Under the pieces are notes generated by a model. That model was not told the DNA's origin and made no database searches. It worked only from the letters and a program-made list of their open reading frames with translations. The position numbers and the translations under genes are program-made. Below, piece after piece: positions 4,471 through 37,808 of a stretch of 64,000 nucleotides of DNA. The DNA is from Elusimicrobiota bacterium (GTDB lineage: Bacteria; Elusimicrobiota; Elusimicrobia; Elusimicrobiales; UBA9959). Each line of letters begins with the position of its first letter. The first letter of the stretch is position 1. Location of the stretch: contig DAIENX010000007.1 of the NCBI GenBank assembly GCA_027340875.1, forward strand, positions 10,750 through 74,749, read 5' to 3'.

Positions 4471-4491
4471 GGTCTTAACGCCGCCGGGCGC

Positions 4492-7372: not shown

Positions 7373-8779
7373 CTATTCGAAGCAGAACATCTTCATTATC
7401 TTTTCCGAGAGCGGCGCGCAGGCCTCCGGGCCGCGCGAGGAAGCCGCGCGGTAGCGCCAGTCCTCCCCTTTGCCGGCCCTGACGGCGCGGACGAAGTCCA
7501 GCATTTCCGGGATCAGGCAGGTCTCCGGGTTCATCAGCGGGTTCCAGCACCTCTTCGGCGACGCGGCCGTCAGCAGCTTGTAATATTCGCCGCAGAACGC
7601 GGCCCCGGACTTCGGGCGGGCCAGCTCCGCCCAGCCGGAGCAGAAGCCGTCGTACTTATTCCTCCCGTCCCTGAGCGCGGCGTAGGCCGAGAGGTACGGC
7701 AGGGCCGCCTCCTCGCAGGTACGCTTGAGGTCCGGATGTATGGAGCTCAGCGGAGCGCAGCCCTCCAGCGAGCCTTTCGAGAGGGAGACGCAGACGCCGT
7801 ACTCCGCCAGCGCGTCCCACAGGTGCTGCTCCGGCATATGCCTGGCGTCGCCGGAATAGTTCGCTATGACGGTGGATACGTCCACCTTCCGGCCGGCGCA
7901 CCTGTCCTCGCCTTTCGGCTGCCCGCCGCCGTCGCCGCTGTTGCGGTACTCGCGCAGCGCGGTGATGGCCTTGCCGCCGCGCATGTTCTTCAGCGCGGCT
8001 ACGGCGGCCTCGCGCACGCGCGGCGAATCGTCCTTCAGCGCCACTATCGCGGCGTCCACGGCCGCCGGCTTGTCGATCATACCGAAGGCTTCCACCGCGT
8101 AGGTCCTGGCCAGCGGGTCCCTGTCCTTCATCATCTCCAGGGCGGCCCCGAAGGCCTTGTCCCTGTCTATCTGCACCAGCGCCCGCAGCGCCTTGGTGCG
8201 CACGTAGATGCCGGGGTCGCCCAGCAAAGCCGATACCGGCTTATAAGTGGACGGCTCCGCTATCCTGCCCAAGGCCTGGACGGCCTTCTCCCTTATCTGC
8301 TCCTCCGGGTTTCTGAGGCTCTTCACGAGGAAGTCGACGGCCCGCTTGTCCCCTATAACGCCCAGCACCTTTATCTCCCACAGCATCGCGGCCGGGCCGC
8401 TCCGCTCCGCCGCGCGCAGTATGGCGGGCACGGCGTCCCCGCCCATGTCCTCGAGCGCCCTTTCGGCGGCGCCCCTTAATTCGGACTCGTCGGAACCGAG
8501 GAAGCCGATAAGGGCGGTCACGTTCCTCTCGCCGCGCGCCTTTACCAGGGTATTCCTGGCGGCCTGGCGCTTCTTGTCGTCCGGAGACTCGAGCAGGCGC
8601 AGCAGGGCCTTCTCGCTCTCAGCGTCCAGCGAGGCGGCGCGCACCTCGCGCATCGCGGCCTCCCTGACGGACCTGGCCTGCGCCGCCGGGGCGGCGGGCG
8701 CTTCTCCGGCCCGCGCCGGGACCCCGGCCGCGGCCAGCGCTATAGGGACCATCAGCATGCGCAATACGGTTCTCTTCAT
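7373..8779 (-). CDS. Exported HEAT-repeat (PBS-lyase-like HEAT) protein with a C-terminal Cys-rich domain
   Basis: Signal peptide MKRTVLRMLMVPIALAAAGVPARA. Multiple HEAT-like repeats (e.g. DDSPRVREAAVAALKNM). The C-terminal ~190 aa carry about 10 Cys and are homologous to the C-terminus of 27316-28365. SD AGGAGGAG precedes the ATG at 8779. This is the last gene of the long minus-strand train. Confidence 0.8.
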   Translation of the reverse strand: MKRTVLRMLMVPIALAAAGVPARAGEAPAAPAAQARSVREAAMREVRAASLDAESEKALLRLLESPDDKKRQAARNTLVKARGERNVTALIGFLGSDESELRGAAERALEDMGGDAVPAILRAAERSGPAAMLWEIKVLGVIGDKRAVDFLVKSLRNPEEQIREKAVQALGRIAEPSTYKPVSALLGDPGIYVRTKALRALVQIDRDKAFGAALEMMKDRDPLARTYAVEAFGMIDKPAAVDAAIVALKDDSPRVREAAVAALKNMRGGKAITALREYRNSGDGGGQPKGEDRCAGRKVDVSTVIANYSGDARHMPEQHLWDALAEYGVCVSLSKGSLEGCAPLSSIHPDLKRTCEEAALPYLSAYAALRDGRNKYDGFCSGWAELARPKSGAAFCGEYYKLLTAASPKRCWNPLMNPETCLIPEMLDFVRAVRAGKGEDWRYRAASSRGPEACAPLSEKIMKMFCFE

Positions 8780-14239: not shown

Positions 14240-15186
14240 TTCGCTCTCTTCCGCCGCTTCGGCCCCGCCCCCGCGGCGGCGGGGCGGCACGGAACGAACT
14301 CGCCCCAGCCGAAAAGCTCCGGGTACTCGCGCCAGGGACCCTCGCACCTGTCGAAGAAGGCGCAGGACGGACACTTCGGCCCCTTGGCCTTGCCCTCGTT
14401 CAGCCTGTATTTACCGAAATCCTCTATCACGGTCCCCGCGTCGAAGATCTTGGTGCGCGGGATTATCGTCTCGGCCACGTAGTCCTCGTAGCCGCCCATG
14501 AAGCAGTACGGTATGGCCTCGGTCATAACGCGCAGGCCGGCGGCAAGGCCGATGTCCAGGCCGCGCTTCACGAAAGGCTCCATCACGGTCTTCTTCGGGA
14601 TCAGCCACCTGGCGTTCGCGGCGGCGCTGCCGAGTATGTGCACGAAGGCGAACTGGAACTGGTCCACGCCCAGCTTGGCCAGCAGCGTGGCTATGGCCGG
14701 CAGGTCCTGCGTGTTGGGTTTGGTTATCACGGTGTTGGTGATGACCCGGAACCCCGCCTTCTTCAGGTTCATTATCCCGGTCACGGTCTCGCGGAACGAG
14801 CCCCCGGCTCCGGTGAGGTAGTCGTGTATCTCCGCCCTGGACCCGTGCAGGGCCGGCGAGGCCTCGGTGGCCCCTGCCGCCGCCGCCTCGCGGCAGAACT
14901 CGGGGTAGCGGAACATGCGGCCGTTGCTCTGGATCTGGATGTTGCGGTAGCCGGTCTTCTTCGCCTCGCGCACTATCTGCAGGAATTCCTTGTGCAGCGT
15001 GGGCTCGCCGCCGGTCAGGACCAGCTCCCGGCCGCCGTCCTCGTAGCCGCGCCTCAGCTCCCTGCGCAGCTGCGCCATGTCCTTGGGCTGGTGCTTCTCC
15101 CGCTTCTTGCCCTGCACGCAGAACACGCACATGTTGTTGCAGCCGAAGGCGACTTTAAGGTCTATCCGCTTCAGGGGTCCGTTCAT
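14236..15186 (-). CDS. Radical SAM protein, CX2CX5CX3W family paralogue
   Basis: VAFGCNNMCVFC, LTGGEPTLHKEF, QSNG, ALHGSRAEIHDYLTGAGGSF. C-terminal CPSCAFFDRCEGPWREYPELFG. The ATG at 15186 makes an ATGA overlap with the upstream stop. An ATG at 15198 is an alternative start. Confidence 0.85.
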   Translation of the reverse strand: MNGPLKRIDLKVAFGCNNMCVFCVQGKKREKHQPKDMAQLRRELRRGYEDGGRELVLTGGEPTLHKEFLQIVREAKKTGYRNIQIQSNGRMFRYPEFCREAAAAGATEASPALHGSRAEIHDYLTGAGGSFRETVTGIMNLKKAGFRVITNTVITKPNTQDLPAIATLLAKLGVDQFQFAFVHILGSAAANARWLIPKKTVMEPFVKRGLDIGLAAGLRVMTEAIPYCFMGGYEDYVAETIIPRTKIFDAGTVIEDFGKYRLNEGKAKGPKCPSCAFFDRCEGPWREYPELFGWGEFVPCRPAAAGAGPKRRKRAK

Positions 15187-16394
15187 ATGAGGCTCCACAG
15201 GCGCCGCAGGGCGATCTTGGCCAGCAGCAGCACGTTGCCGCCGGACAGCGCCGCGGTGACGGCCAGGCCGGCGACTATCCAGAAGGCGAAGGGGCGCACG
15301 TGGAAGACCGGCACCCCCACGTCGTCCTTCGAATCGGCGGCTTTGCTCCTGACGTATTCCTTGAGGCCCTCCAGCTGTTCGGCGGTCAGGCCGTCGCGGT
15401 ACCGGTCGAAGCCGTACTTCTCCGCCAGCTCCGGCTCGGCCTCGCGCAGCTGCTGCAGGTATTCCTCGGAGATTATCATGCCCGGCGTTAGGCTGTCGAG
15501 ACAGACGCGGCGCGTGCCGGACAGCGCCAGGTGCCGGTCGGCGACGGCGTACAAAACGCCCCTGAACAGCATGAACTCCATGCTCATCACGAATCCGTAC
15601 AGCACCAGCCTGGCGAGGCTGAGCGTCTCGGGATTAAGCCTGGACGCGACGGCCAGGAGCAGCAGGCCGGCGAGCAGCGCGCGCGGACCGGCCTTACCGG
15701 CCAGCCAGCCGACGCGCCCGCCCAGCGCGAACATCAGGATGAAGAGGATGTTGCTGTTCACCTGGAAGCCGCCGGTATGCGCCGAGTTCCAGGCCGAGAC
15801 GAAGCTGAACAGCAGAGCGCTGAAGGAGAAGGTCACCAGCCGGCCCGGCTCCCTCGCCAGTCCGGCGGCGGCGGCGCGGGCGGCCGCCCAGCTCTTCCCG
15901 AAGGCTTTGATGGTCCCGTCCGAGAAGAGCAGGCCGAGCTGCTCCCTGGACATCTGCGCGAAATATACCGCCGCGGGCGGGACGAAGATGTTGACCAGCA
16001 GCGACAGCACCAGCGCCACCGGCGCCCAGCTGGCGTACGAGATGACCATCGGTAGCGCCGCGCAGAGCAGGGCGAAGAGCTTGGCGTCGCCCGCCGGCCA
16101 CACCGCGGTCTTCCAAAGTATTATCCCAGCCAGCAGGCCGAGGGCCGCGTTCTCCAGCAGCACCAGGTAGTACCTGTAAACGAAGAACGGCTCCCAGAAT
16201 GGGCCGTGCAGCCCGTACCTGGTCCCGGCCACGCTGACGGACAGCATGACCGCGGCGGCGGCCAGGACGGCAGCCCCGCCGCGGGCCAGGCTCCTGTTGC
16301 GTATCTTGCCGCAAAGGTCGTCCTCCCTGACCACCCTGAGCAGCAGGACGGTCAGGTACAGCGTCAGCAGCAGGCTTACTATCGGCAGGTACAT
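15183..16394 (-). CDS. Polytopic membrane protein, A24 (prepilin/TadV-type aspartic peptidase)-like N-terminal region with a soluble insert
   Basis: Multiple hydrophobic helices. EDDLCGKIRNR resembles the first catalytic-Asp motif (D..x..IPN). WPAGDAKLFALL resembles the G-x-GD-x-KL second motif. A charged region of about 70 aa (EEYLQQLREAEPELAEKYGFDRYRDGLTAEQLEGLKEY) precedes the last helix. Confidence 0.65.
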   Translation of the reverse strand: MYLPIVSLLLTLYLTVLLLRVVREDDLCGKIRNRSLARGGAAVLAAAAVMLSVSVAGTRYGLHGPFWEPFFVYRYYLVLLENAALGLLAGIILWKTAVWPAGDAKLFALLCAALPMVISYASWAPVALVLSLLVNIFVPPAAVYFAQMSREQLGLLFSDGTIKAFGKSWAAARAAAAGLAREPGRLVTFSFSALLFSFVSAWNSAHTGGFQVNSNILFILMFALGGRVGWLAGKAGPRALLAGLLLLAVASRLNPETLSLARLVLYGFVMSMEFMLFRGVLYAVADRHLALSGTRRVCLDSLTPGMIISEEYLQQLREAEPELAEKYGFDRYRDGLTAEQLEGLKEYVRSKAADSKDDVGVPVFHVRPFAFWIVAGLAVTAALSGGNVLLLAKIALRRLWSLI

Positions 16395-18245: not shown

Positions 18246-19122
18246 GGAATTCCGAGTCCCCGTAGGTTTCAAGATATTTGGCGTACACCCCGCCGCAGAC
18301 CGCCAGCTTCGAACAGGCCCGGCAGCAGCGCAGGGCCGTCTTTTCCCGGTGGCCGTCCACGGAGCGGCCGCGGCGGCGCAGCATCTCGGTGCGCCGCATC
18401 GCGAACTCGCAGGCGCCCGCCGGCACGCGCGGCAGGGCGGCGCAGAGCGGCACGTCCCAGAGGCGCAGGCTTCGCGGCCAGCGGCCGCGCGCGGGCGCCA
18501 GCTCCTCCACCAGCCTGGAATACCTGACCGAGAGCTTTTTCCAGTCCTTCAGCGCCCGGCCGAACGGCAGCAGTCCGTGGAAGACGATGTTCCTGAGGCC
18601 GCGCAGCGAGAGGAAGAAGTCCCGCAGCTCCCCGAGGCCGTCTATGTTCAGCGCGTTGACCGTGGCGTTCACCGAGACCTGCACCGGCGAGCCCTTCGGC
18701 CGCAGCGAAAGCAGGTTCGACAGGCCGCGCACGGTCTGCGCCCAGCTTCCCGCCGCCCCCGTTATGGCGTCATGCACTTCCGGTCTGGCCCCGTGCAGCG
18801 AGACTATCACCTCGCTGGCGCCCGAGGCCAGCAGTTTGGAGCAGTAATCCCTGTAGGCCAGCATCCTGCCGTTGGTTATGACGGAGATGCCGCTGCAGCC
18901 CAGCCGCGCGGCCTCCCCTATCAGGGCCGGCAGGTCCGGGTTCAGCGTGGGCTCTCCGGAGGTGAAGACCAGCCGGCGCCCCCTCGCGGGCGCCCGAAGC
19001 CCGTCCACGGCGCCGCCGCCCCGGCGGCGGCCGCGGCCGGAGACGTCGGTGCAGAAGACGCAGTTATTGTTGCACTCCGAAGAGGAGGCCGCGTAGAGGA
19101 CTTTCCCTGCCGCCTTAGTCAT
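18235..19122 (-). CDS. Radical SAM protein, CX2CX5CX3Y family paralogue
   Basis: The track's 676-aa ORF is an out-of-frame read-through of the upstream gene. The real start is ATG 19122, an ATGA overlap with the NifD-like stop. MTKAAGKVLYAASSSECNNNCVFC, TSGEPTLNPDL, ITNG, SLHGARPEVHDAITGAAGSW. C-terminal CRACSKLAVCGGVYAKYLETYG. Confidence 0.85.
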   Translation of the reverse strand: MTKAAGKVLYAASSSECNNNCVFCTDVSGRGRRRGGGAVDGLRAPARGRRLVFTSGEPTLNPDLPALIGEAARLGCSGISVITNGRMLAYRDYCSKLLASGASEVIVSLHGARPEVHDAITGAAGSWAQTVRGLSNLLSLRPKGSPVQVSVNATVNALNIDGLGELRDFFLSLRGLRNIVFHGLLPFGRALKDWKKLSVRYSRLVEELAPARGRWPRSLRLWDVPLCAALPRVPAGACEFAMRRTEMLRRRGRSVDGHREKTALRCCRACSKLAVCGGVYAKYLETYGDSEFHAL

Positions 19123-20408
19123 GCGCTCCTCGCCGCGTTGAACATCCGCTGCACCAGGTTCACGGCTCCGGAGAAGCCCAGGAAAGGCTCCGGCCGCAGC
19201 GCGTGGTACCTGTAGGACGGGAAACCCAGGTCCATGCCGGGCAGCCCCAGCAGGGCCGAGCGCCGGCCTACGCTGCTGGATACCAGCAGGTCGCAGCGCC
19301 CGCCGGAGAAAAGCTCCTCTATGGCCCGCCCGTAGGCGAGCACGGGGAAATCCCTCAGCACCGGTCTCCCCGGGAAAGCCGCCTCGGCCGAGGCCCATTT
19401 GCCTCCGGAGCAGGTCAGGAACACTCCGGCCACGCCCATGCCCAGCTCGGCCGCGAAGGCGCAGACCGCCTTTCCCAGGTACGGGTCGCCGGTGAAGCAG
19501 AGCCTTTTCCCGGCCAGCGCGCCGCCCACCGCGGTGCGGGCCAGCGAATGGGCCCCGGAGAGCTCCTCGGCTATGATCGCGTCCGCTTTCACGGCGGAGA
19601 TTCCGGCGGCGCCGGCGGCGGCTTTCAGCCAGGCCGCCGAGGCGGCCAGCCCCAGCGGCAGCTCCAGCTCCAGCAGCCTGGCGCCGGTCCTGCGGGCCAG
19701 CGTCGCGGCCGCGCCGCGCGCGTAAGGCAGGGAGATGATCAGGCCGGCCTGCTCCGCTTCCTTCAGGGAGGCGTAATCGCTCCCTCCGGGCCAGGCGCAG
19801 ACCAGGTCCAGCCCGGCCAGCGCCAGCATGCGGCGCAGCTCCGCGAGGTTGCCGGTCTGGTCGCCCTCGTTGCGGTCCATGAAATGCCCCACTACGGCGA
19901 CCTTGCCGCGCCGGCCGGCGCCCTTCTTCAGCGGCATGTCCGCGGCCATCCTTTCCAGCGCCAGCGCGTAGCCGTCCAGGTAGTCGAAGTCCAGCGCGTT
20001 GGCCGAGGCGCTCACCACCCTGGTGCCGCGCCGCCCCGTCAGCGAGGCGGCCAGCTTCCCGTAATCCCTCCCGGTGAGCGTCATGACCGGCAGCGAGGAG
20101 AGCAGCACCACGCCCGCGCGGCCGCACAGCGCGTCGGCGCGGGCCTCGGCGCCGGAGCTGTCGCCGGCTATTATCTCCCCGGCGTGGGAACCGGTATGCA
20201 GCACGCGGCTGTCGCCGCGGCAGTCCAGCAGCGTGGAGAACAGGTCGTGGGAGCCGTGCACGCACTCGGCCTTGCGCGTCACGCAGTCCGTGCCGTCCAC
20301 CACCGCGTAGGCGTCCGAGACGGCGTTGACGGCGAGGTACAGACCCGTCAGGAAGGACGGCGTGCAGCTCTCTCCCCTGTCCGGGGTATCAGTTCTCTTT
20401 TCTGCCAT
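19119..20408 (-). CDS. Nitrogenase component-1-type oxidoreductase family protein (NifD/NifE/BchN-like)
   Basis: Size is 429 aa. The N-terminal Cys pair SC(15)TPSFLTGLYLAVNAVSDAYAVVDGTDC(42)V has spacing like the BchN-type cluster ligands. The overall layout resembles three Rossmann-like domains (KVAVVGH, LISLPYARG, KRLCFTGDP). The start overlaps the upstream fusion gene by 20 nt. Where the third Cys ligand is expected the sequence reads LSSLPVMT. Confidence 0.8.
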   Translation of the reverse strand: MAEKRTDTPDRGESCTPSFLTGLYLAVNAVSDAYAVVDGTDCVTRKAECVHGSHDLFSTLLDCRGDSRVLHTGSHAGEIIAGDSSGAEARADALCGRAGVVLLSSLPVMTLTGRDYGKLAASLTGRRGTRVVSASANALDFDYLDGYALALERMAADMPLKKGAGRRGKVAVVGHFMDRNEGDQTGNLAELRRMLALAGLDLVCAWPGGSDYASLKEAEQAGLIISLPYARGAAATLARRTGARLLELELPLGLAASAAWLKAAAGAAGISAVKADAIIAEELSGAHSLARTAVGGALAGKRLCFTGDPYLGKAVCAFAAELGMGVAGVFLTCSGGKWASAEAAFPGRPVLRDFPVLAYGRAIEELFSGGRCDLLVSSSVGRRSALLGLPGMDLGFPSYRYHALRPEPFLGFSGAVNLVQRMFNAARSA

Positions 20409-22605
20409 AGCTAGCGAAATCCGACCCGCAGACGGCCAGGATGGTCTCCAGCGTCCTGCAGGCCCCGGCGAAGCCGGGCCTGAACATGTCCAGCGAGACC
20501 TGCGCCTTGCCGGCGTCGGAGACCCGGTAGTCGCAGGAGAAATCGCTCCAGACCGCGGAGATCGCCGGGGAAGCCAGCCTTCGGCGCAGCTCGGCCTCTC
20601 CGGAGAACGCCGCCGTTCTCATATTGAAGGCGGACAGCGGGCCGGAGAACCTCTTCAGGGCCTTCTTCTCCGGGGCGTATACCAGCAGCTCCAGGCCGAA
20701 GCCGGCCTCCGCCAGGAAGGCGGCCGGCGGCACCCCGGCGGAGCGGGCCGGCGTGAATATCCGCTCCAGGTCCGCCTCGCCGGCGACGAAAGCTATCCTC
20801 TTGCCGGCCGCGCGCGCCTTCAGCGCCTTCCATTCCCCAGCGCTGGCGGCCATCGCCGCCCGAACGGTACCGGCCGCCGCCTTGGAGCGGCCGGCCAGCG
20901 CGGCCGCCTCGAGCAGCCAGGCGGCCGTGGCGGAAAATCCGTAGGGCGAGGGCGGGCGCCTGAGACGCTTCTTCCAGCGCCCGCTGAAAGCGGCCTCCAG
21001 CCTGTCGTAGATGAAAGAATCGCTGAGCAGGGCGCTGCCGGCCGACCGCAGGGCCTCGAGGGACTCCCCGTCGTATTCCGGCAGCAGCCAGAACGCCTTT
21101 ACGCCGGCGGAAGAGAGTATGCCGTCCAGCTCCTTAAGGCCGGCCCCGCCGTAGCCGAGCAGAACGGCAGCGTTGGCGGGCAGCCGGAAGCGGCGCCGGC
21201 CGTCCCGCCTGGCGTAGGCGCGGAAGAAGCCCAGCAGCTCGCCGGGCACGGAGCAGCCGTCCAGGCAGGTGGAGCTGACCACCACCGGCACGCCGCTGGC
21301 CTTCTCGGCCTCGCCGGCCAGCTTCCGCACGTCCTCGCCCATAGCGTAAGGTACGCAGCCGTTGGTCATGAAGATATAATCCGGCCTTCCTCCGGCCAGG
21401 TCCGCGGCGATATCCCTTATGCGGCCGCCGCTGCCGAGTATCACTTCCCCTGTGCCCAGCGCGCTGGAGCTCCTGGTGGAGCCGGCTTCCGGGTGCAGCT
21501 CGCTGCCGGGCAGCAGGCTGGCGGGACCGCGCAGGAACGGGACCTTCTCGCTCTCCTCCAGCCGCTCCTGGCTGTAGGCGCATTCCCTGTCCTCGTGGGC
21601 CAGGAAAGCCTGCCGCCCGGTGTAGCGTACCAGCCCGGTGCCGGAGAAGACGGCGTCCGAGAAGAAGCGGCGCCAGCCGTCGCCGGCGCCCGAGGGCGGC
21701 CTGGCGGGCGAGGAGATCTTGAAGGACGCCCCGCAGGCCTCCGGCGCGTGGCAGGCAGCGGGCACGTCGGGCGGGGCGGCCGGAAGCACGCGCGGCTTCT
21801 TCCCGCGGCCGGAGAGCAGCGGCAGCAGTATCCTGCCGTCCACCGGCCGCGGCAGGGAGCCGGCGGCATCGGAAGCGTCCAGGCCGGCCTTTATCCTCCT
21901 GACCGCCGCGGCGAAAGGCGAGCGCGGGGCCAGGCGCACCACCGCGGCCCCGGCGGCTTCGGCCTCCCTGACCGCCGGGTCCAAAGGACAGCGGGCCAGT
22001 ATGCCGGCCTTTATCAGCGCGGCGAACTTGTCCACGGCGCCGCCGCGGCCGCCGTCCGCGCCGTTGGCCACCAGCCCCATCAGGCCGGCGCCGCTGCCGG
22101 CGTGCACGGTCATCGCGCGGGCTATGTTGTTGGCGGCGTAGAGTGACATCAGGTCTTCCGAGACCACTATCAGCACCTTGCGCCCGAAGCCTTTTCTCAG
22201 CGGCACGGCGAAGCCGCCGCAGACTATGTCGCCCAGCACGTCGAAGATCACCGCGTCGTAGTCGGCGGCCACCTTCTCGCGGGCGGATTCCAGCAGCTCG
22301 AAGGTCTTCAGCAGGCCCATGCCGGCGCAACCCTCTCCCGGAGCGGGGCCGCCGGCCTCCAGGCAGTCCACGCCCCTGCCTGTCCTGTAGATCAGCTTCT
22401 CCAGCGTCGGGCGGCCGCCGCGCAGCGCCTCCACCACGGTCGGGATGCCCTCGCCGCCTGTCAGCAGCAGCGCGGAATCGCTCTTCGGGTCGCAGCCCAC
22501 GTGCAGGACCCGCTTGCCCTCCATGGCGTACAGCTCGCTGAGGTTGGCTGCTATGGTGGATTTGCCTATCCCGCCCTTGCCCAGGATGACGATGCGCTCA
22601 GACAT
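20389..22605 (-). CDS. Fusion protein: NifH/BchL/CfbC-type Fe-protein ATPase (N-terminal) plus a nitrogenase component-1-like (NifK/BchB-like) domain (C-terminal)
   Basis: The N-terminal ~250 aa carry the P-loop ILGKGGIGKST, switch I GCDPKSDS, and both 4Fe-4S Cys ligand contexts (GEGCAGMG and DVLGDIVCGGFAVP). A Pro/Ala/Arg-rich linker contains CHAPEAC. The C-terminal ~400 aa carry component-1-like motifs (DYIFMTNGCVPYAMGEDV, VPVVVSSTC, KRIAFVAGE). Confidence 0.9.
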   Translation of the reverse strand: MSERIVILGKGGIGKSTIAANLSELYAMEGKRVLHVGCDPKSDSALLLTGGEGIPTVVEALRGGRPTLEKLIYRTGRGVDCLEAGGPAPGEGCAGMGLLKTFELLESAREKVAADYDAVIFDVLGDIVCGGFAVPLRKGFGRKVLIVVSEDLMSLYAANNIARAMTVHAGSGAGLMGLVANGADGGRGGAVDKFAALIKAGILARCPLDPAVREAEAAGAAVVRLAPRSPFAAAVRRIKAGLDASDAAGSLPRPVDGRILLPLLSGRGKKPRVLPAAPPDVPAACHAPEACGASFKISSPARPPSGAGDGWRRFFSDAVFSGTGLVRYTGRQAFLAHEDRECAYSQERLEESEKVPFLRGPASLLPGSELHPEAGSTRSSSALGTGEVILGSGGRIRDIAADLAGGRPDYIFMTNGCVPYAMGEDVRKLAGEAEKASGVPVVVSSTCLDGCSVPGELLGFFRAYARRDGRRRFRLPANAAVLLGYGGAGLKELDGILSSAGVKAFWLLPEYDGESLEALRSAGSALLSDSFIYDRLEAAFSGRWKKRLRRPPSPYGFSATAAWLLEAAALAGRSKAAAGTVRAAMAASAGEWKALKARAAGKRIAFVAGEADLERIFTPARSAGVPPAAFLAEAGFGLELLVYAPEKKALKRFSGPLSAFNMRTAAFSGEAELRRRLASPAISAVWSDFSCDYRVSDAGKAQVSLDMFRPGFAGACRTLETILAVCGSDFASYGRKEN

Positions 22606-26438: not shown

Positions 26439-27386
26439 CTATCCAAGAAGTATCCTCTCTGCCAGCCTGTCCGCGGCCATCCCGCCGGCCACGGCCTTGG
26501 CCCCGAAAAGCTTCTTCGCCATGCCGGAGTAATCAGGACGGCGTCCGCTCCCGGCGCCCAGAGCCTCCAGCCCGCCGGCCAGCATCTGCGCGGCCTGGCC
26601 CGGGTCCCTCGCGGCAAGGACGAGGTTGGAGTGATAGCACCTGCCGTCAGTGTCCACCGTGGTCCCGGGATTGAAAAGCGGCACCGGGCCTTCGCGCGAG
26701 GCGTTCTCGATGACAACGGCCCCGGAATCGGCCAGTTCCCTGATATGCCTCAGCGCCCTGGCGAGCTTGGCGAGGGCGGCCGGCGTCCATTCCCGGTAAT
26801 AGGCCGGCAGGACGTTGACCCTGGGCGGTCGTCCGCGCGAAGCGGCTATCACGCGCTTCAGGACCCCGAGCGAAGAAAGCGGGTCGCGCTCGGGCAGCAG
26901 CAGGTTCCAGATCAGGTTGGGCAGGGCCGCGAACCTGCGGCTGACGCTCACCGAGGAGTTAATGTTCACCTGCACCCACGGCCGGGCCGAGAAATACCGG
27001 AGCTTCGCCGCGTCCAGCAGCAGGCCGTTCGTGCCCACCTCCGCGCGGCCGCGGTAGCCGGCCGCCTCCAGCATGCCTATGCCAGTCCTCACCAGCCCGA
27101 AGCGCAGCAGCGGCTCCCCGCCGAAAAACTTGACCGCGCCGCCCCCCAGGGCGGCGGAACAATACTGCTTTATAGCGCTTTTCAGGACCGCCGCGGGCAT
27201 GTCCGCCCGCCCGGTCGCGACGGGACATTCGGGGCACGCCGACTGGCAGCGCCGGGTGAGGATAAGGGTCAGCTGCGGGGCCGGCGCGCCCCCGCGGCAG
27301 GCCGGAAGGGCCGAGTTACTGGCCCTTCGCCGGTTCCTTTCCTTTGGTCTGCTTGCCCTGCGGCTGTACGCCCATCCTCTTGTCAT
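26439..27386 (-). CDS. Radical SAM-like protein (divergent, GGEPLL type)
   Basis: LILTRRCQSACPEC (CX3CX2C), FFGGEPLLRFG, GTNGLLLD. It lacks the CX2CX5C tail. The ATG at 27386 overlaps the upstream gene by 71 nt and I found no better start, so the start is uncertain. Confidence 0.65.
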   Translation of the reverse strand: MTRGWAYSRRASRPKERNRRRASNSALPACRGGAPAPQLTLILTRRCQSACPECPVATGRADMPAAVLKSAIKQYCSAALGGGAVKFFGGEPLLRFGLVRTGIGMLEAAGYRGRAEVGTNGLLLDAAKLRYFSARPWVQVNINSSVSVSRRFAALPNLIWNLLLPERDPLSSLGVLKRVIAASRGRPPRVNVLPAYYREWTPAALAKLARALRHIRELADSGAVVIENASREGPVPLFNPGTTVDTDGRCYHSNLVLAARDPGQAAQMLAGGLEALGAGSGRRPDYSGMAKKLFGAKAVAGGMAADRLAERILLG

Positions 27387-28365
27387 CTTCAGCCTTCTGC
27401 TTTACCATGTCGGCCATTATCTTGTGGCGGAACGAGCTCGTGCAGTAGCCGGTGGCGAGCTTCTTGGCCAAAGGTGCGCAAACCGACGGGTCCCTGGACT
27501 GCAGCACGTGGAGCAGCCATTTCTCGTCCGGGGTGGAATCCCCCCTCACCAGCGCGGCGCTGAGCTGGCATTCTTTCTTCCGCGGGCCGCTCAGTTTGCC
27601 GCAGGCCGCCCGCCCGTTGATGAACAGGAAGTTGGATTCGCAGTTGGGCGGCAGACCGAGCGAGCGGCACTCCGGGGTCCGCCTCTTCGCGATAGAGTCG
27701 GTAATGAACCGACAGAAGTCGGGGCTGGGACGCCCCCCCCTGAACGCGTTGTTAACGAACTTCTCGCATTTCCCGTCGTTCGTCTTCCTGTTCAGGGCCG
27801 AATACATGAAATCGTAGTAATCGGCGGCGAAACAGACCCTCTCCAGGTTCTGCTGGACGCAGTCGAGACGGCCACCGCTGATAAGCCGGCAGACGCCGTA
27901 GTCCAGGAAGAGATCGAGTATAGTCTCATCCTCGGGCATGTTGCTGTTGGTATTGAAGAAGAACCGGAAGTTCTTGTCGAAATGCCTGACGATAGCGTCC
28001 GGGTTGTCCGAGAAGGCCTTTATACAGTCGCTGTCGGCCGCGTTCACCGGGACGTCCTCTGGCTGGGAATAATACCCGCCGGAGGCGCTTTCGTACTGGC
28101 CGCTCTGGGGGATATTGCTCTGGGTATCGGTCGACGCCTGGCTGACCAGCGCGGCGGCGTCCGGAGGAAGCGCCTGGCCGACCTCCTGTTGCTGGGCCGC
28201 GGGGTAGGCCGGAGCCGCCGGCTGCTCGATGCCTATCTTCGCGGCGTTCCTGTCGGTGACCATCTTCAGGGCGAAAAGCACGCCCATCAGCGCCACCAGC
28301 AGGCCGATAAGCAGCTTCGGGGACATCGCCCCGGGTCTGTAGCCTTTCCTCATCGCGCTCACCAT
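27316..28365 (-). CDS. Membrane-anchored or exported Cys-rich protein, paralogous to the C-terminal domain of 7373-8779
   Basis: N-terminal helix LLIGLLVALMGVLFAL, then a low-complexity linker, then about 230 aa with about 13 Cys. MPEDETILDLFLDYGVCRLISGGRLDC aligns with MPEQHLWDALAEYGVCVSLSKGSLEGC. DPSVCAPLAKKL aligns with PEACAPLSEKI. ATG 28353 is an alternative start. Confidence 0.7.
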   Translation of the reverse strand: MVSAMRKGYRPGAMSPKLLIGLLVALMGVLFALKMVTDRNAAKIGIEQPAAPAYPAAQQQEVGQALPPDAAALVSQASTDTQSNIPQSGQYESASGGYYSQPEDVPVNAADSDCIKAFSDNPDAIVRHFDKNFRFFFNTNSNMPEDETILDLFLDYGVCRLISGGRLDCVQQNLERVCFAADYYDFMYSALNRKTNDGKCEKFVNNAFRGGRPSPDFCRFITDSIAKRRTPECRSLGLPPNCESNFLFINGRAACGKLSGPRKKECQLSAALVRGDSTPDEKWLLHVLQSRDPSVCAPLAKKLATGYCTSSFRHKIMADMVKQKAEDDKRMGVQPQGKQTKGKEPAKGQ

Positions 28366-28655
28366 TGCCCGTGGCTGCCGTGCGAACCGTGCGAACCGTG
28401 CGAGCCGTGGCTGCTGTGCGAACCGTGCGAACCGTGCGAGGCGTGACTCACGTGGCCCGACGCGTTGCCGCTGCTGTGGAAGTAGTTTGCATGCGCTAGC
28501 GCGTCAGCGTGCTCTGTCACCACTCCGACGGCGGTGGCTACCAGTCCGAGGACGACCGCGGCCTTGACCACGTCGCTCTTGACTATCTTGCCCTCCTCGC
28601 TCGAAAGGAAGCGGGAAAGGTCTACCGACAGTTTCTTTTTCTGTTTTCCGGCCAT
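28359..28655 (-). CDS. Small membrane-anchored His-Xaa-Ser repeat protein (HxsA-like candidate rSAM substrate)
   Basis: Size is 98 aa, with a basic N-terminus and one hydrophobic helix (AAVVLGLVATAVGVV). The C-terminus holds nine consecutive H-x-S triplets: HVS HAS HGS HGS HSS HGS HGS HGS HGS, then HGQW. It lies 19 nt downstream of an rSAM/SPASM gene. Confidence 0.7.
   Translation of the reverse strand: MAGKQKKKLSVDLSRFLSSEEGKIVKSDVVKAAVVLGLVATAVGVVTEHADALAHANYFHSSGNASGHVSHASHGSHGSHSSHGSHGSHGSHGSHGQW
28369..28449 (-). repeat. Coding tandem repeat, 9-nt period nested in a 36-nt duplication, encoding (S-H-G)n
   Basis: The plus strand reads ccgtggctg ccgtgcgaa ccgtgcgaa ccgtgcgag, then a repeat of the same 36 nt with one mismatch (28369-28404 versus 28405-28440), then one degenerate unit. 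Confidence 0.9.
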
Positions 28656-28674
28656 ATTTCGCCCCGTTCTCGGT

Positions 28675-30144
28675 CTATACGTGTATCCCGGCCGCTCCGG
28701 CGCTGCTGCCGGCCCAGGATTCGAACAGCTTCCTAACCTTCGGCTCGCGCAGCCGCGCGAACAGGTAGTCCATCACTCCGGTGTAGATCTCGCACCGGAA
28801 GTTGGGATGATGCATGTACAGGTCGTTGTGCTCCGAATAGTTGAAGACCGGGCATACGCCGCAGTAGGGCTTGTAGACGCAGGAGGAGCAGAGCGTCTGT
28901 ATGTCCGTGACCGACGCGGTGACCACGCATTTCACCACTGAGCTCGACGCCAGGTCCGCGTAGGTCTCCTTCTTCAGGTCGCCCATGCAGAACGAATCGG
29001 TCCCCTCCGCCGCCAGCATGCGCCCCTCGTCGCAGGTGAAGACGCGGCCGTCGTAGTCGTAGGCGATCTGGCCTATCCCCGCCCCGCAGGGGGACCGGAG
29101 GTCCATGAAGTTCGGGTCGGTGCCGGTCAGGATCTTCCTCAGGAATATCCTGGCCGTGTGCTCGACCAGGGAGGCCTTCTTCTTCAGGTTCAGCTCTATG
29201 ATGTAGTCCAGCGCCTTCGTGTAGAACTCTATGTACTCCCGCGCCGTGTAGCCTATCCCAGGCCAGGCCTTCTTCGCCGCGCCGAACGGATTGAGGAAGC
29301 GCAGGAAGATGGAGCGGGCGCCGATGCGGACGTATTCGTCCACTATGTCCTTGTGGCGCCCCAGGGACTGCTGCGTCACCGTGAGCAGGGCGTCCGGCCC
29401 GTTCTTGGTCCTGGCCGTGCGCTTCTTGATGGTCTTCCACCACTTCACGACCTGGGCGTGGCTGCTGCCGCCGGTGGCCACCCGGTTCTTGTCGTGCAGG
29501 TCGGCGGGACCGTCCAGCGAGGTGCAGATGGCGACGTTGTGCTTGAGCAGGAAGTTCAGCCTCTCTCCGGTCATGGCCGACAGGTTGGTGACCAGGCTCA
29601 GGCTCACCTTCTTATCGAAGGTCTTCGTGCGGGCGGCGGCCTCGTTGACCACGAACTCCAGCACGGGCCAGTTGAGCAGCGGCTCCCCGCCCTGGAACTC
29701 TATGGTGATGTTGTCGGCCGGGGAAGCGAAGATGGCGTCCAGCACCCTGGAGGCCGTCTCCCTGTTCATGTCCAGGCCGCGGCCGCTCCTCTTGGACGAG
29801 GCGTGGCAATACACGCAGTCGTGGTTGCAGCGCCGCGTCAGCACGGCTATGTGCAGCGCCGGGCCGGAGAAGAGGAAATGGTTCTTCTCGAGCCACCTCT
29901 CGGCCAGGCCGGAAAAGTCCATGTAGTCGCGGACGAGGCCCTTGCGGGAGAGGTCCTTGTACTCAGCCGAGTCCTTGTCCAGCTTGCCGGCCGCCAGCCG
30001 CGAGAAGACATCGCCGGAGATGAAGGCGTGCTCGCCTATGTCGTTGGTGACCAGGTATTCGTCGCCCCACTTCTTGTAGCGCAGAAAACCGGTCTTCTTC
30101 GGGTCGAAGTCAATTCTTTCTTTTTGCTTTTCTGGCCTTCGCAT
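28675..30144 (-). CDS. Radical SAM/SPASM peptide-maturase-like protein (HxsB-like)
   Basis: LTRRCNHDCVYCHAS (CX3CX2C), FQGGEPLL, VTNLS, SLDGPADLHDKNR. SPASM-type cysteines are present (RSPCGAGIGQIAYDYDGRVFTCDEG, then CSSCVYKPYCGVCPVFNY). An N-terminal extension of about 105 aa precedes the core. Confidence 0.9.
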   Translation of the reverse strand: MRRPEKQKERIDFDPKKTGFLRYKKWGDEYLVTNDIGEHAFISGDVFSRLAAGKLDKDSAEYKDLSRKGLVRDYMDFSGLAERWLEKNHFLFSGPALHIAVLTRRCNHDCVYCHASSKRSGRGLDMNRETASRVLDAIFASPADNITIEFQGGEPLLNWPVLEFVVNEAAARTKTFDKKVSLSLVTNLSAMTGERLNFLLKHNVAICTSLDGPADLHDKNRVATGGSSHAQVVKWWKTIKKRTARTKNGPDALLTVTQQSLGRHKDIVDEYVRIGARSIFLRFLNPFGAAKKAWPGIGYTAREYIEFYTKALDYIIELNLKKKASLVEHTARIFLRKILTGTDPNFMDLRSPCGAGIGQIAYDYDGRVFTCDEGRMLAAEGTDSFCMGDLKKETYADLASSSVVKCVVTASVTDIQTLCSSCVYKPYCGVCPVFNYSEHNDLYMHHPNFRCEIYTGVMDYLFARLREPKVRKLFESWAGSSAGAAGIHV

Positions 30145-30571
30145 TTTTGTTTTCTTCCCACGGTATGGCTATTCCCAGAGCATCGGTCTTGTAGTCGCCG
30201 CTCTCCGCCTCTTTCAGCAGCTTCTCGATCTCCTTCTCCAGCTCCGCGTCCAGCACCGGGGCGGCGGCCGCCGGTTCCGCGGGTCTGGGCTGCGCGGAAA
30301 GAAGGGCCCTGACCACTATCCTCTCGCGCAGGGCCTGGTTCACGGCCGAGACCTTGAGGCGGAAAGCGTGGTGCAGCAGTTCGTTGCGGAACTCGCCCTC
30401 CAGGTCGCGGCCCGCCGGGAACTTGCCGTTCTTGGACTCCAGCACGGCCGAGAGAGCGCCGCCCTTGTCCTTGCCCAGCTTCACGTACGCGGCCTTGGAG
30501 AACGTGTATGCCGCGGCATAGACGCACTCGATAGGGTAAACGGAAAGATCTATCTTCACCTGTATTTTCAT
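30110..30571 (-). CDS. Small hypothetical protein, possible HxsD-like accessory protein
   Basis: Size is 153 aa. GAGGA SD lies 5 nt upstream of ATG 30571. The 3' end overlaps the start of the rSAM/SPASM gene by 35 nt. ELLHHAFRLKV is loosely reminiscent of the LLNDYxLRE signature I recall for HxsD. The C-terminus is acidic then basic. Confidence 0.55.
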   Translation of the reverse strand: MKIQVKIDLSVYPIECVYAAAYTFSKAAYVKLGKDKGGALSAVLESKNGKFPAGRDLEGEFRNELLHHAFRLKVSAVNQALRERIVVRALLSAQPRPAEPAAAAPVLDAELEKEIEKLLKEAESGDYKTDALGIAIPWEENKNAKARKAKRKN

Positions 30572-30590: not shown

Positions 30591-31154
30591 TTATCTCAAC
30601 CTGCAGCAAAGCATTTCGCCAGTAGCCTGTATACCGCCGGGAGGGCCCATCTGGTACATCTGGTTGCCGACGCGGGCGGCCACTACGGCGGTCTTGGCGC
30701 CGAGACACATCGTGACGACGCCGTAAGAATAGCTCTGCCAGGAACAGTCCAGCGGGACCGTCGGGTCGGACCAGCGGGCCAGGCCGTTGCCGTCCGAGGT
30801 AAGCAGCCGGCCGTTGGCCTGCGTGCCGTCCTGCAGCTCGAAGCTGCCGACCACGTGGAGTTTTGCGGCCGGGGAAGGGGTGCCTATTCCAACATTGCCG
30901 CCGTCCCTGGCCAGCAGGGTCTGGCTGGTGGTAAGTATGCTGACGTAGCCGCCGTAGGGGGCAGGGTAATAAGTGGTCAGCGTAAGCGTCTCGGAGCCGA
31001 TGAAGCCCGGATGCCAGCAGATGAACATGAGGGCCATCAGCGCCACCACCGTCTTCCGGTGCGTCCTGCCGAGCCTGTCCAGCCAGGCAGGCAGGCCGGG
31101 CTGGTGAAGCCAGTCCAGCGAGAACCTTATAACGATATCGCGGTTATTTTTCAT
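30591..31154 (-). CDS. Membrane-anchored surface protein with a tail-fibre-like YYP-x-P-x-G-x-Y / GNVGIGT motif
   Basis: Start taken at ATG 31154 (MKNNRDIV). Hydrophobic helix VVALMALMFICW. TLTTYYPAPYGGYVSILTT, then GGNVGIGTPSPAAKLHVVG, a pattern common in phage tail-fibre and endosialidase-chaperone-like proteins. The tail is Cys-containing. This is the first gene after the promoter and leader. Confidence 0.6.
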   Translation of the reverse strand: MKNNRDIVIRFSLDWLHQPGLPAWLDRLGRTHRKTVVALMALMFICWHPGFIGSETLTLTTYYPAPYGGYVSILTTSQTLLARDGGNVGIGTPSPAAKLHVVGSFELQDGTQANGRLLTSDGNGLARWSDPTVPLDCSWQSYSYGVVTMCLGAKTAVVAARVGNQMYQMGPPGGIQATGEMLCCRLR

Positions 31155-31340
31155 AGTCGCCGCCCCCGATAAGCGCGAAAAGCACATCCTTGCGCAACGG
31201 CCCCTACGGTCGGGACGCGTTGCATATCACACGGACCGCCACGGGCTTGCTCCCATGGCACTCACCGATCCGGATTTCGTTCGCGCGCCTACGCGCATGC
31301 TAGCCATCCGCCGGCTTACGCCGGCGATACTTCGACTATA
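31155..31340 (-). promoter_or_regulatory. Long structured 5' leader (candidate cis-regulatory RNA) of the 24-kb gene train
   Basis: About 185 nt lie between the predicted -10 and ATG 31154. Minus-strand hairpins include CGCCGGC-GUAA-GCCGGCG (a GNRA loop), UGCGCG-UAGG-CGCGCG, GCCAUGGG-AGCAAG-CCCGUGGC, and a 12-bp bulged helix UGCAACGCGUCCC...GGGGCCGUUGCG. I could not recognise a known riboswitch class. Confidence 0.3.
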
Positions 31341-33176: not shown

Positions 33177-33205
33177 TTGACAGCCGCCGGGTTTCGTCTT
33201 ATAAT
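33177..33205 (+). promoter_or_regulatory. Consensus sigma70 promoter for the small-ORF / rSAM-SPASM operon
   Basis: TTGACA (33177-33182), a 17-nt spacer, then TATAAT (33200-33205). Both hexamers match consensus perfectly. Confidence 0.65.
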
Positions 33206-36668: not shown

Positions 36669-37055
36669 TCAGAGCAGCACTACCAGCAGGGTCGCGCCGA
36701 ACTTTTCCTTCAAAAAGGCCCGCGCCTCCTCCGCGATGTCCCTGAAATCCTCCAGGTCGGCGGGAGAGGCGGAGAGGAAAGAGGCCGGGTCCCGGACCGC
36801 CAGCACGTAACCCTTCGCCGGGACCTCGTTCGGGAGCGAACGCAGGCAGTCCAGCAGGGCGTCCCAGTTCCCGCCGAAATAGGCCGGGAACCTGAACGCC
36901 GACGAGACCGCGGCCAGCAGCCCGGCCTTGTCCCTGGCCGCAGATCCGTCTATGAAGGCCGTAAAATAATCCGGAGGAGGGAACCTTTTCAGGACCTCCT
37001 CCTCCGAAGCGGACCCCTTGAGGTCCAGGAACAGCCCGCCGGCGCCCGGGGGCAT
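36669..37055 (-). CDS. Barstar-family ribonuclease inhibitor
   Basis: FRFPAYFGGNWDALLDCL is the hallmark barstar motif. Size is 128 aa. It starts 5 nt downstream of the RNase gene. Confidence 0.85.
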   Translation of the reverse strand: MPPGAGGLFLDLKGSASEEEVLKRFPPPDYFTAFIDGSAARDKAGLLAAVSSAFRFPAYFGGNWDALLDCLRSLPNEVPAKGYVLAVRDPASFLSASPADLEDFRDIAEEARAFLKEKFGATLLVVLL

Positions 37056-37060
37056 GCGGC

Positions 37061-37621
37061 TCAGTAGACCACCGTCAGCAGGATAAAGTTCTTGTAGTGG
37101 TCGGGGGTGTAGTAGATCTTCTCGCCGCCGCCTATTATCACCCGCTCCGAGCCGCGGGCGCTGAGGTCGGGGGCCACCTGGTAGGTGGTGCCGCCTATGG
37201 TCACCGTGTGCGGCGCGTTGCCGGTCAGAAGCGTGTACTCGTGGTAGTAGCCCTTGGGCTGCTGCGGCAGGCGTCCTTCCTTGTTGGAGAAGATCGCGCC
37301 GTCCTGGGAATACGGGAGATGGTTCCCGTTGTAGATGTCGGAGATCAGCTTCATCAGCGCCTTGATGCGGGCGCCGTCCTGGATGGCGGGGCTGAAGTCG
37401 CGGCCGGGAGCGGGCGCGCCGGCCGAGGCGCGCGTTTCCGCAGCGGGAGCGGCCATCGGAACGATAATCTCATTCGGGGAGGGGATCGCGTCCAGGCCCT
37501 GCAGCACCACCGCGCCGGACAGGTCGCCCAGCGCTGTCGCGCCTGGGCGCTCGGCGAAGACCCGTGGCGAAACCGCGAGCAGGGAAAGTATTACGGCGGT
37601 CTGAAACCATCTTTTAAGCAT
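37061..37621 (-). CDS. Secreted guanyl-specific ribonuclease (barnase / RNase Sa / N1-T1 family)
   Basis: Start taken at ATG 37621 (MLKRWFQTAVILSLLAVSPRVFA, a signal peptide). Catalytic-core motifs are GYYHEYT, RGSERVI and YYTPDHY. Confidence 0.85.
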   Translation of the reverse strand: MLKRWFQTAVILSLLAVSPRVFAERPGATALGDLSGAVVLQGLDAIPSPNEIIVPMAAPAAETRASAGAPAPGRDFSPAIQDGARIKALMKLISDIYNGNHLPYSQDGAIFSNKEGRLPQQPKGYYHEYTLLTGNAPHTVTIGGTTYQVAPDLSARGSERVIIGGGEKIYYTPDHYKNFILLTVVY

Positions 37622-37756
37622 GTTCTTTTTCCTTGTGTTGTAATGGCGCCGATCGCGCTCGCGTTCCGGCATTACCGCAGTTATATTTTAGTATATAACG
37701 TTTTTCTGCCTAGGGCCCTAGGACCCAGACCCGCCTAGGCCCAAAGACCCAGAGAA

Positions 37757-37787: not shown

Positions 37788-37808
37788 CCCTTGACCGGCT
37801 GGAGCCGG

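Follow-up and report, generated by a model that had tools for sequence, protein, structure and literature searches.

A His-Xaa-Ser peptide module of the HxsA4 type at the head of a radical SAM-rich gene array with nitrogenase-like genes in an Elusimicrobiota genome

Why should a small protein that ends in a run of His-Xaa-Ser triads be encoded at the head of a gene array that also contains nitrogenase-like (NFL) genes? This question is raised by a stretch of 64,000 nucleotides (nt) from an Elusimicrobiota bacterium (GenBank assembly GCA_027340875.1, contig DAIENX010000007.1, positions 10,750 to 74,749 of the forward strand), referred to here as the window, in which a His-Xaa-Ser (Hxs) module, comprising the repeat protein, a radical S-adenosylmethionine (rSAM) maturase and a small accessory protein, was noticed. 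The initial annotation of this DNA treated the Hxs family as one defined only bioinformatically. This view is outdated, since the canonical HxsD-HxsB-HxsC-HxsA set has been shown to protect broadly against phages by preventing the entry of their DNA; HxsC binds HxsD, while HxsA undergoes N-terminal processing, receives a +8 Da modification within its SHRSS motif and is active in the periplasm (Li et al., Nat Commun 2026, PMC13128918). The answer that we favor, with a probability of roughly 0.55, is that the region holds a genuine Hxs module of the HxsA4 subtype and that this module is the front end of one pathway of about 24 kb, resembling those of peptides that are made on the ribosome and modified after translation (RiPPs), and not a stand-alone four-gene HXS system. 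HxsB and HxsD would act on the triads, the accompanying rSAM enzymes would elaborate them, the NFL proteins would reduce the peptide and the membrane protein p403 would process its leader.

The module is recognized by three adjoining genes on the minus strand. The putative precursor is a 98-aa protein (28359..28655) whose C-terminus, GHVSHASHGSHGSHSSHGSHGSHGSHGSHGQW, consists of nine tandem H-x-S triads (residues 68-94, DNA 28374-28454) followed by HGQW; their middle position is taken by G, S or A, and an isolated HSS at residues 60-62 stands apart from the tandem triads. The repeat is preceded by a Lys-rich N-terminus, the leader motif FLSSEEGK, a hydrophobic segment and the linker HANYFHSSG. 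Compared with NCBIfam models, the protein scores 64.4 bits against NF038313 (cut-off 55) and 22.8 bits against the HxsA3 model (cut-off 65), and the match to NF038313 together with the tandem triads identifies it as an HxsA4-type precursor. The DNA beneath the triads is a 9-nt repeat that is imperfect (81% matches) and hence no product of recent slippage. Domain searches detected no peptidoglycan-binding domain in this protein, and no second open reading frame (ORF) with an HxS repeat or the leader motif is present in the window besides 28359-28655. The neighboring gene (28675..30144) encodes HxsB, an rSAM/SPASM maturase of 489 aa, whose stop lies 19 nt upstream of the HxsA4 start. It scores 489.4 bits against TIGR03978 (cut-off 370), carries its CX3CX2C motif at residues 106-113 and conserved cysteines in a C-terminal Cys-rich SPASM region, and is 39.6% identical to the canonical HxsB of an Aeromonas plasmid operon. 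A N-terminal extension of about 105 aa had been regarded as unusual; since profile positions 4-466 of 466 align to residues 21-478, this region is part of the family. The start of HxsB is overlapped by 35 nt by the 3' end of a 153-aa ORF (30110..30571), which is near the threshold of TIGR03976 (48.2 bits, cut-off 50, E 1e-12, profile positions 1-87 of 90), occupies the canonical position of HxsD and is 26% identical to the HxsD of the same Aeromonas operon; Pfam offers nothing usable for it up to E <=10. All three ORFs are thus found as the initial annotation had described them, including the 19-nt spacing and the overlap, and its assignment to the Hxs family agrees with the HxsA-D model search, with HxsB and HxsA4 above their cut-offs and HxsD slightly below its own.

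Conservation of the precursor was assessed by scanning species-representative genomes with an HxsB alignment, which yielded 79 loci that were taken with 10 kb on each side and searched as six-frame ORFs using phmmer with the window proteins as queries; gene contents were counted on those 59 loci that span 12 kb or more. The 79 loci belong to Elusimicrobiota, Myxococcota (among them metagenome-assembled genomes (MAGs) that bear the label Deltaproteobacteria), Patescibacteria and Omnitrophota, with a few from elsewhere. Of the 79 loci, 46, distributed over the four named phyla, contain an ORF in which three or more HxS triads stand in tandem, and this ORF is almost always located downstream of HxsB on the same strand; no more than 1 kb separates its end from that of HxsB in 25/45 loci. 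Alignment of 43 precursors reveals a common architecture in which a Lys-rich N-terminus and an invariant leader motif, FLxSEEGK(I/M), precede a hydrophobic segment, in many cases an AxA-like site, a linker and (HxS)n. The linker reads H(S/T)NY(L/F)HNSG in Elusimicrobia and contains a Cys in members of the Candidate Phyla Radiation (CPR) and in Myxococcota, n, the number of repeats, has a median of 13 and extremes of 4 and 51, G is the middle residue in 442 of 619 triads, and the usual C-termini are HGQW, HGSW, HGSY and RGGWC. The repeat ORF, on whose conservation the initial annotation had made its assignment depend, is therefore conserved, and by sequence comparison the repeat is no chance feature, since it passes a curated model and has homologs downstream of HxsB in those 46 loci. 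A conserved leader joined to a variable core and encoded beside a maturase is the arrangement that would define a RiPP-type precursor, and it is the arrangement seen in this alignment. Several variants (L058, 20292-21011; L013, L018, L032 and L045; L024, L035 and L046) extend the picture: homologs in Patescibacteria reach about 50 HxS repeats, the variants of CPR and Myxococcota carry a conserved Cys right before the first repeat, and some in Elusimicrobia end in RGGWC and not in HGQW. An HxsD homolog adjoins HxsB in 54/59 loci, and at least one HxsC-like rSAM protein is encoded in 50/59.

In the window, HxsD, HxsB and HxsA4 are part of a larger unit. Between 31187 and 7373, 23 co-directional genes occupy about 24 kb of the minus strand, and each is separated from the next by at most 24 nt or overlaps it. 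The order is p198, HxsD, HxsB, HxsA4, p349, p315, C1-C4, NflH-NflD, NflK, C5-C7, p403, C8-C10, S_10602, p309, C11 and a HEAT-repeat protein. The sequence HxsD-HxsB-HxsA4 is thus continued by 19 further genes and departs from the canonical D-B-C-A order, and the NFL genes are sandwiched between HxsC-like genes.

Most genes of the array encode rSAM proteins, and 19 such proteins, all with an intact CX3CX2C motif, are found between 1.5 and 35 kb of the window. C1 (25307-26434), C2 (24324-25310), C3 (23596-24327) and C4 (22598-23617) lie upstream of the NFL genes, carry CX3CX2C and have HxsC4 and HxsC as their best NCBIfam matches, with 42-94 bits against cut-offs of 500 and 268. C5 (18235-19122), C6 (17331-18245) and C7 (16399-17487), located downstream of the NFL genes, match HxsC4 or HxsC best with 78-126 bits and present a C-terminal CX2CX5C. 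They are followed by C8 (14236-15198), by C9 (13385-14374), for which MoaA is the best match, by the 587-aa C10 (11629-13392), by S_10602 (10602-11624), an HxsB/PapB-like rSAM protein, and by C11 (8804-9982), all on the minus strand. C10 has two rSAM-like stretches and a single CX3CX2C motif, and may represent a tandem or degenerate duplication. Across C1-C11 the scores range from 33 to 106 bits for HxsC and from 44 to 126 bits for HxsC4, one of these two models being the top match for 10/11, and the C-terminal CX2CX5C of canonical HxsC is shared by 9/11 of the paralogues. They are 17-24% identical to canonical HxsC, whose N-terminal domain of about 110 aa is missing from them. A strict extended version of the HxsC C-terminal motif occurs in just 41 of 168 HxsC-like ORFs across the loci and was not used as a defining feature. 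The divergent rSAM protein p315 (26439..27386, minus strand), which has kept CX3CX2C as CQSACPEC and has orthologues in L001, L002, L011, L019, L080 and L115, had been proposed as a second maturase; with 16 bits against the HxsC cut-off of 268, it was rejected as HxsC.

The nitrogenase-like part of the array consists of two minus-strand genes. The first (20389..22605) encodes a 738-aa fusion of a NifH-like ATPase, NflH, with a nitrogenase component-1-like domain, NflD, which match the Pfam families Fer4_NifH and Oxidored_nitro with 221.8 and 54.6 bits, respectively. NflH is most similar to CfbC, NifH, BchX and BchL, with scores of 170-222 bits that all remain under the NCBIfam cut-offs for NifH, CfbC, BchL and BchX. 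It has the P-loop GKGGIGKS at residue 9 and the cluster cysteines Cys93 and Cys129 in conserved motifs. A covalent fusion of the Fe protein with a catalytic subunit is unusual in the nitrogenase family. The same fusion was observed in 21 of 61 NflH ORFs of NFL-anchored metagenome loci, and the accessible text of neither paper on Group VI nitrogenase paralogues mentions it (Meheust et al., 2020; PMC13474568). The second gene (19119..20408) encodes NflK, a component-1 paralogue of 429 aa that is NflK/D-like and scores 141 bits with Oxidored_nitro. Its homologs form 47 clusters in a large protein collection, and those with a name derive from MAGs of Elusimicrobia or Deltaproteobacteria, with the exception of one unclassified bacterial MAG. 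A NifH-like protein that is neither NifH, CfbC, BchL nor BchX, together with divergent NifD/K partners amid 19 rSAM genes, corresponds to the Group VI nitrogenase-like cluster of Meheust et al. (2020). That the window genes would fall inside the Group VI clade is supported indirectly, by the origin of the named homologs and by GWA2_69_24, a genome that is named in the portion of that paper that discusses the Group VI cluster and that carries a member of the HxsB clade (our locus L011).

The association of the two gene sets was followed from both sides, with the HxsB loci complemented by a metagenome scan for NflK that yielded 78 loci, 42 of which were at least 12 kb long and were used for counts. 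In 7/59 loci HxsB has NFL genes at a distance of 10 kb or less, in varied arrangements and phyla, and a strong HxsB lies within 10 kb of the NFL genes in 4/42. A genome comparison of the kind suggested by the initial annotation therefore shows that the neighborhood recurs as a minority pattern. In L005 the order is HxsD-HxsB-HxsA4-rSAM-NflH-NflD-NflK-C1-C7-p403-C8, and in L046, from a member of the Myxococcales, it is HxsD-HxsB-NflH-NflD-NflK-HxsA4, with NCBIfam scores of 476.9 bits for HxsB and 93.5 bits for HxsA4. A fifth, shorter NFL locus reads NflD-NflH-NflK-HxsD-HxsB and is followed by an HxS ORF. By our own estimate, which takes 20 kb of an assumed genome of about 3 Mb, chance would account for about 0.4 of the 59 loci even if every genome possessed NFL genes, and the adjacency of Hxs and NFL genes is far above this level. 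Co-occurrence at the level of whole genomes is underestimated by these counts, because the view is limited to 10 kb on each side and by contig ends. HxsC-like rSAM genes are found in 23/42 NFL loci. Orthologues of C1, C7, C8 or p403 are present in 30/59 HxsB loci and in 13/42 NFL loci, in the latter usually in the order C1-C7-p403-C8; C8 is the most widespread HxsC-like orthologue group (20/59 HxsB and 7/42 NFL loci), the C1 group is common to both kinds of loci and the C7 group crosses phyla. As judged by orthologue content, this shared core bridges the Hxs and NFL modules, as it accompanies HxsB without NFL genes and NFL genes without HxsB. The initial annotation had called the linkage to a nitrogenase paralogue a new context: the linkage is real and recurs elsewhere, and the Hxs peptide is absent from the accessible text of the nitrogenase papers, but the paralogue and its rSAM suite are themselves the published Group VI (Meheust et al., 2020). 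The connection between Group VI and an Hxs peptide appears to be new, as does the reading of the NFL cluster as an expanded HxsA4-type peptide-maturation system.

A candidate for leader removal is encoded within the conserved C1-C7-p403-C8 block. The polytopic membrane protein p403 (403 aa, 15183..16394, minus strand) belongs to a family of proteins of about 390 aa with 1613 representatives at E <=1e-3 in a profile search, and PF01478 (Peptidase_A24, type IV leader peptidase) is matched by 30 of 48 sampled family members, with a best E of 2.5e-7. In an alignment of eight homologs, D25-x4-K-I-x-N33 and W-x-A-G-D-A-K105 are invariant, so that D25, I31, N33 and G102-D103-A104-K105 can be set against the A24 motifs D-x5-I-x-N and G-D-x-K; D25, D103, K105 and N135 are invariant throughout the 48-member sample. 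Thus, p403 may be read as a divergent relative of the GxGD-type leader peptidases and is therefore a candidate for removal of the HxsA4 leader. Comparison of the p403 profile with PDB sequences returned matches to MthK only, which reflect a spurious similarity of membrane helices. A second peptidase gene, of the M20 type (4492-5682, minus strand), neighbors the array. Close orthologues (718-819 bits) lie directly beside NFL or HxsB genes elsewhere (L075, 79-1281; L145, 4373-5632), in one case in the arrangement NflHD-NflK-M20-HxsB, which suggests that the M20 peptidase is part of the pathway.

Whereas the membership of HxsB and HxsA4 in their families, the structure of the operon, the conserved precursor and the recurring synteny are observed directly, we infer from this gene content every chemical step and the order of the steps, what the NFL proteins act on, how the leader is cleaved and what biological role results. 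HxsB, probably with HxsD, would recognize HxsA4 through its K-rich FLxSEEGK leader and would subject the H-x-S triads to radical-SAM chemistry. Further radical modifications would be introduced by the eleven HxsC-like paralogues, p315 and S_10602, and perhaps by HemN-like and B12-binding rSAM enzymes encoded nearby. The Group VI proteins NflH-D/NflK would then use ATP to drive the low-potential reduction of a peptide intermediate that is unsaturated or heteroaromatic, after which the A24-like p403 would cut off the leader at the membrane. The modified His-rich product would be membrane-anchored or extracytoplasmic, or would be trimmed to small units by the M20 peptidase; membrane tethering of HxsA4 is plausible given its hydrophobic segment and the A24-like peptidase. 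The most far-reaching version of this scheme holds that the Group VI proteins are peptide-tailoring reductases acting on rSAM-modified HxsA4 triads and that (HGS)n is a multi-copy template for a new peptide-derived cofactor or metallophore, released or anchored by the A24-like and M20 peptidases. We offer it tentatively, with the odds standing against it; if true, these would be the first nitrogenase-family enzymes with a ribosomal peptide as substrate.

Several observations weigh against the single-pathway reading as a whole. We know of no nitrogenase-like enzyme that acts on a peptide, and a literature search combining nitrogenase-like enzymes with RiPPs found none, the papers that it listed being free of the term "nitrogenase-like". 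The characterized proteins closest to NflH and NflD reduce tetrapyrroles, and HemN-like, BchE-like and PBS-lyase-type HEAT proteins are encoded in the cluster. The joint occurrence of Hxs and NFL genes is the minority pattern from either side, and in 19/42 NFL loci no HxsC-like rSAM gene is located nearby. No HxsC-like protein, the eleven paralogues included, reaches the level of HxsC (TIGR03977, at least 267.9 bits) or of HxsC4 (NF038332, at least 500), and the cluster yielded no exporter gene. For p403, the window protein itself has no Pfam match even at E <=10, its AlphaFold2 model from the eight-sequence alignment is poor (pLDDT 65), and a Foldseek comparison of that model with the PDB yielded nothing better than E 0.68; the A24 assignment is transitive and sub-threshold for the window protein.

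The array is flanked by further genes that could participate. Its first gene, p198 (30591..31187, minus strand), ends 19 nt upstream of HxsD and encodes a protein with a TLTTYYPAPYGGY motif that has no match in NCBIfam or, up to E <=10, in Pfam; p198 homologs lie directly upstream of HxsD in 20/59 related loci. A consensus scan alone places a sigma-70-like promoter candidate just upstream of p198 (31375-31347, minus strand), with TTGAAA-17-TATAAT, a TG extension and 11/12 consensus matches. The start of p349 (27316..28365, minus strand) overlaps the HxsA4 stop; this Cys-rich protein with an N-terminal transmembrane segment has no family match (NCBIfam; Pfam to E <=10) and is confined, among the loci compared, to the close relatives L001 and L080. 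Towards the other end of the array, p309 (9673-10602, minus strand) is family-less, with no usable Pfam match at E <=10, and the last gene (7373..8779, minus strand) encodes a HEAT-repeat protein (HEAT_2, 101 bits in Pfam), the next gene being on the opposite strand. Three HemN-like rSAM proteins are encoded beyond it, at 1497-2960 and 2960-4372 on the minus strand and at 5866-7365 on the plus strand, and the neighbors at 1497-7365, including the M20 peptidase, probably belong to the same cluster. Upstream of the array are a B12-binding, BchE-like rSAM protein (214 bits; 31506-32984, minus strand), an orphan PapB-like rSAM/SPASM protein (33420-34907, plus strand), near which no precursor ORF was recognized, and an FAD amine-oxidase-like oxidoreductase (34979-36514, minus strand). 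A perfect promoter-like TTGACA-17-TATAAT (33177-33205) precedes the orphan gene, and in L002 the Hxs module has homologs of the FAD oxidoreductase and the B12 rSAM protein at its flanks. Directly right of the cluster come a barnase-like ribonuclease gene, its barstar partner and a PIN-PhoH gene (36669-39236, minus strand), which are followed by a housekeeping block with BamA, Skp, LpxD, LpxC and LpxA; RelA/SpoT is also found in the flanks. An Rfam scan of the whole window returned no riboswitches or other families. The nearest named relatives of the window proteins are from Elusimicrobia MAGs. In the closest relative, L001 (HxsB 87% identical), an extra NflK/NflH pair (L001, 4803-8634) is located upstream of p198, where the window has the B12-binding rSAM gene, and the periphery of the cluster is therefore fluid even among close relatives.

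The explanation that competes most directly separates the region into two independent neighboring pathways, with the Group VI proteins and the HemN-like and B12 rSAM enzymes building or reducing a tetrapyrrole-derived cofactor and the Hxs and HxsC-like genes being unrelated residents of the same rSAM-rich island. A tetrapyrrole substrate is the published view (Meheust et al., 2020; PMC13474568). It would fit the best matches of NflH (CfbC, NifH, BchX and BchL), the presence of three HemN-like rSAM proteins, a BchE-like B12 rSAM protein and a HEAT/PBS-lyase-repeat protein, and the finding that HxsB is not within 10 kb in most NFL-anchored loci. However, neither the cluster nor the annotated portions of the window contain a tetrapyrrole biosynthesis gene. 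Overlapping HxsC-like genes surround the NFL genes downstream of the precursor, NFL genes are placed between HxsB and HxsA4 in L046, and the C1, C7, C8 and p403 groups are common to both kinds of loci. HemN-like and B12 rSAM proteins are, moreover, common peptide-tailoring methyltransferases, and they accompany HxsA4 in Patescibacteria. To our knowledge, Patescibacteria generally lack tetrapyrrole synthesis, and the pairing of HxsA4 with HemN-like rSAM proteins in their loci argues for the peptide as the substrate of the HemN-like enzymes. Taken with these points, two separate pathways seem unlikely.

A role in anti-phage defence, in which exported, matured HxsA4 would stop the entry of phage DNA as in canonical HXS and the extra enzymes would elaborate the effector, draws on the homology of HxsB and HxsD to the HXS defence system. 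The E. coli system requires rSAM maturation, N-terminal processing and export (PMC13128918), for which the leader and hydrophobic segment of HxsA4 and the leader-peptidase-like gene of the cluster could be counterparts, and a barnase/barstar pair is located nearby. Against this role, HxsA4 is devoid of a peptidoglycan-binding domain, and the basic charge invoked for DNA binding is lost, because Gly and not Arg occupies the middle of most triads (442/619). Gene order and content are unlike the D-B-C-A arrangement of 99.6% of HXS systems, the flanks are of a housekeeping nature (BamA, Lpx cluster), and a defence system made up of 19 rSAM genes in addition to NFL genes would come at an unusual cost, which renders this role improbable. 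A PADLOC scan of ten cluster proteins detected generic similarity of rSAM proteins to viperin only; its 2023 library apparently predates HXS and is hence silent on defence. Of all explanations considered, the least probable is that the NFL proteins do not touch the peptide, serving instead as an ATP-driven low-potential electron donor to the rSAM enzymes, or that HxsA4 carries a metal or cluster to them. Since rSAM enzymes need very low-potential reduction and His-rich tails bind Ni, Zn and Cu, and since NflH has kept its ATPase and cluster motifs, both roles can be conceived. In isethionate assimilation, an NFL enzyme is partnered with an rSAM enzyme (PMC11423573). Yet homologs of the catalytic components NflD and NflK, needless for a pure donor, are always present, a simple metal carrier would have no use for a SPASM maturase of its own or for a conserved leader, and most rSAM-rich HxsB/HxsA4 loci are without NFL genes. 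The metal or cofactor carrier proposed in the initial annotation is speculation. If the single HxsA4-headed pathway is adopted, the locus gives the Group VI proteins a concrete and testable candidate substrate in addition to the suggested tetrapyrrole link. Most of the "generic" rSAM proteins that accompany the Group VI genes here are HxsC-like, and the Hxs family is seen to include a far larger relative with multiple rSAM genes, which is widespread in Elusimicrobiota, Myxococcota, Omnitrophota and the small-genome Patescibacteria.

Compared with canonical HXS, the window shares an HxsB orthologue, an HxsD-like gene that overlaps the HxsB start, a substrate with tandem H-x-S triads, a likely N-terminal processing and rSAM proteins of the HxsC lineage with a C-terminal CX2CX5C. 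It differs in having eleven sub-cut-off paralogues in place of a true HxsC, in the order D-B-A4, and in a precursor of 98 aa with an FLxSEEGK leader and C-terminal (HGS)n but neither a peptidoglycan-binding domain nor Arg-rich repeats. Furthermore, the operon that contains the module counts 23 genes, among them the NFL genes and one for an A24-like peptidase. In a survey of HXS, 99.7% of the systems were from Pseudomonadota and 99.6% had the D-B-C-A order (PMC13128918), whereas the HxsA4-type hosts are Elusimicrobiota, Myxococcota and Patescibacteria. No paper naming HxsA4 or HxsC4 was found in our literature search.

Group VI nitrogenase paralogues were described from groundwater Elusimicrobia, Gracilibacteria and Myxococcales, with up to 13 adjoining rSAM genes, and were predicted to reduce a tetrapyrrole (Meheust et al., ISME J 2020). 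According to section 7 of a more recent review, the group is without a characterized member and its context points only to tetrapyrrole metabolism (Chem Rev 2026, PMC13474568). The window resembles this group in its NifH-like and divergent NifD/K-like genes amid many rSAM genes, including B12-binding and HemN-like ones, in its nearest homologs from Elusimicrobia and in the same unusual spread over Elusimicrobia, Myxococcales and CPR. It departs from the description in that most of its rSAM proteins resolve as HxsC-like, whereas the published account takes them as generic and predicts a tetrapyrrole substrate, and in that the operon starts with HxsD-HxsB-HxsA4, contains an A24-like peptidase and encodes NflH-NflD as a single ORF. 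The term His-Xaa-Ser does not appear in the accessible text of either paper, nor do "peptide" and "SPASM" in that of Meheust et al. (2020).

Among peptide-modifying systems, triceptide (three-residue cyclophane) rSAM/SPASM maturases such as HtkB and HaaB act on His-containing motifs, and cross-links from His C2 to C-beta have been established (PMC11499958). The likeness to the window lies in an rSAM/SPASM enzyme that would act on short repeated aromatic-x-x motifs of a leader-bearing precursor. Nevertheless, HxsB constitutes a separate NCBIfam family, with only 35-72 bits in the cyclophane models against cut-offs of 310-445, and the sole measured Hxs modification is +8 Da and not the -2 Da of a cyclophane. 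The biosyntheses of pyrroloquinoline quinone (PQQ; PqqA/PqqE) and mycofactocin (MftA/MftC) are similar in their small precursor, their rSAM/SPASM maturase with a small partner and the possible involvement of product-releasing peptidases, and the variable number of HxsA4 repeats would suit a multi-copy precursor of this kind. The HxsC-like proteins are distinct from PqqE and MftC (25-66 bits against cut-offs of 381 and 265), and neither pathway has a counterpart of the window's HxsA4 repeats, of its NFL reductase or of its A24-like peptidase.

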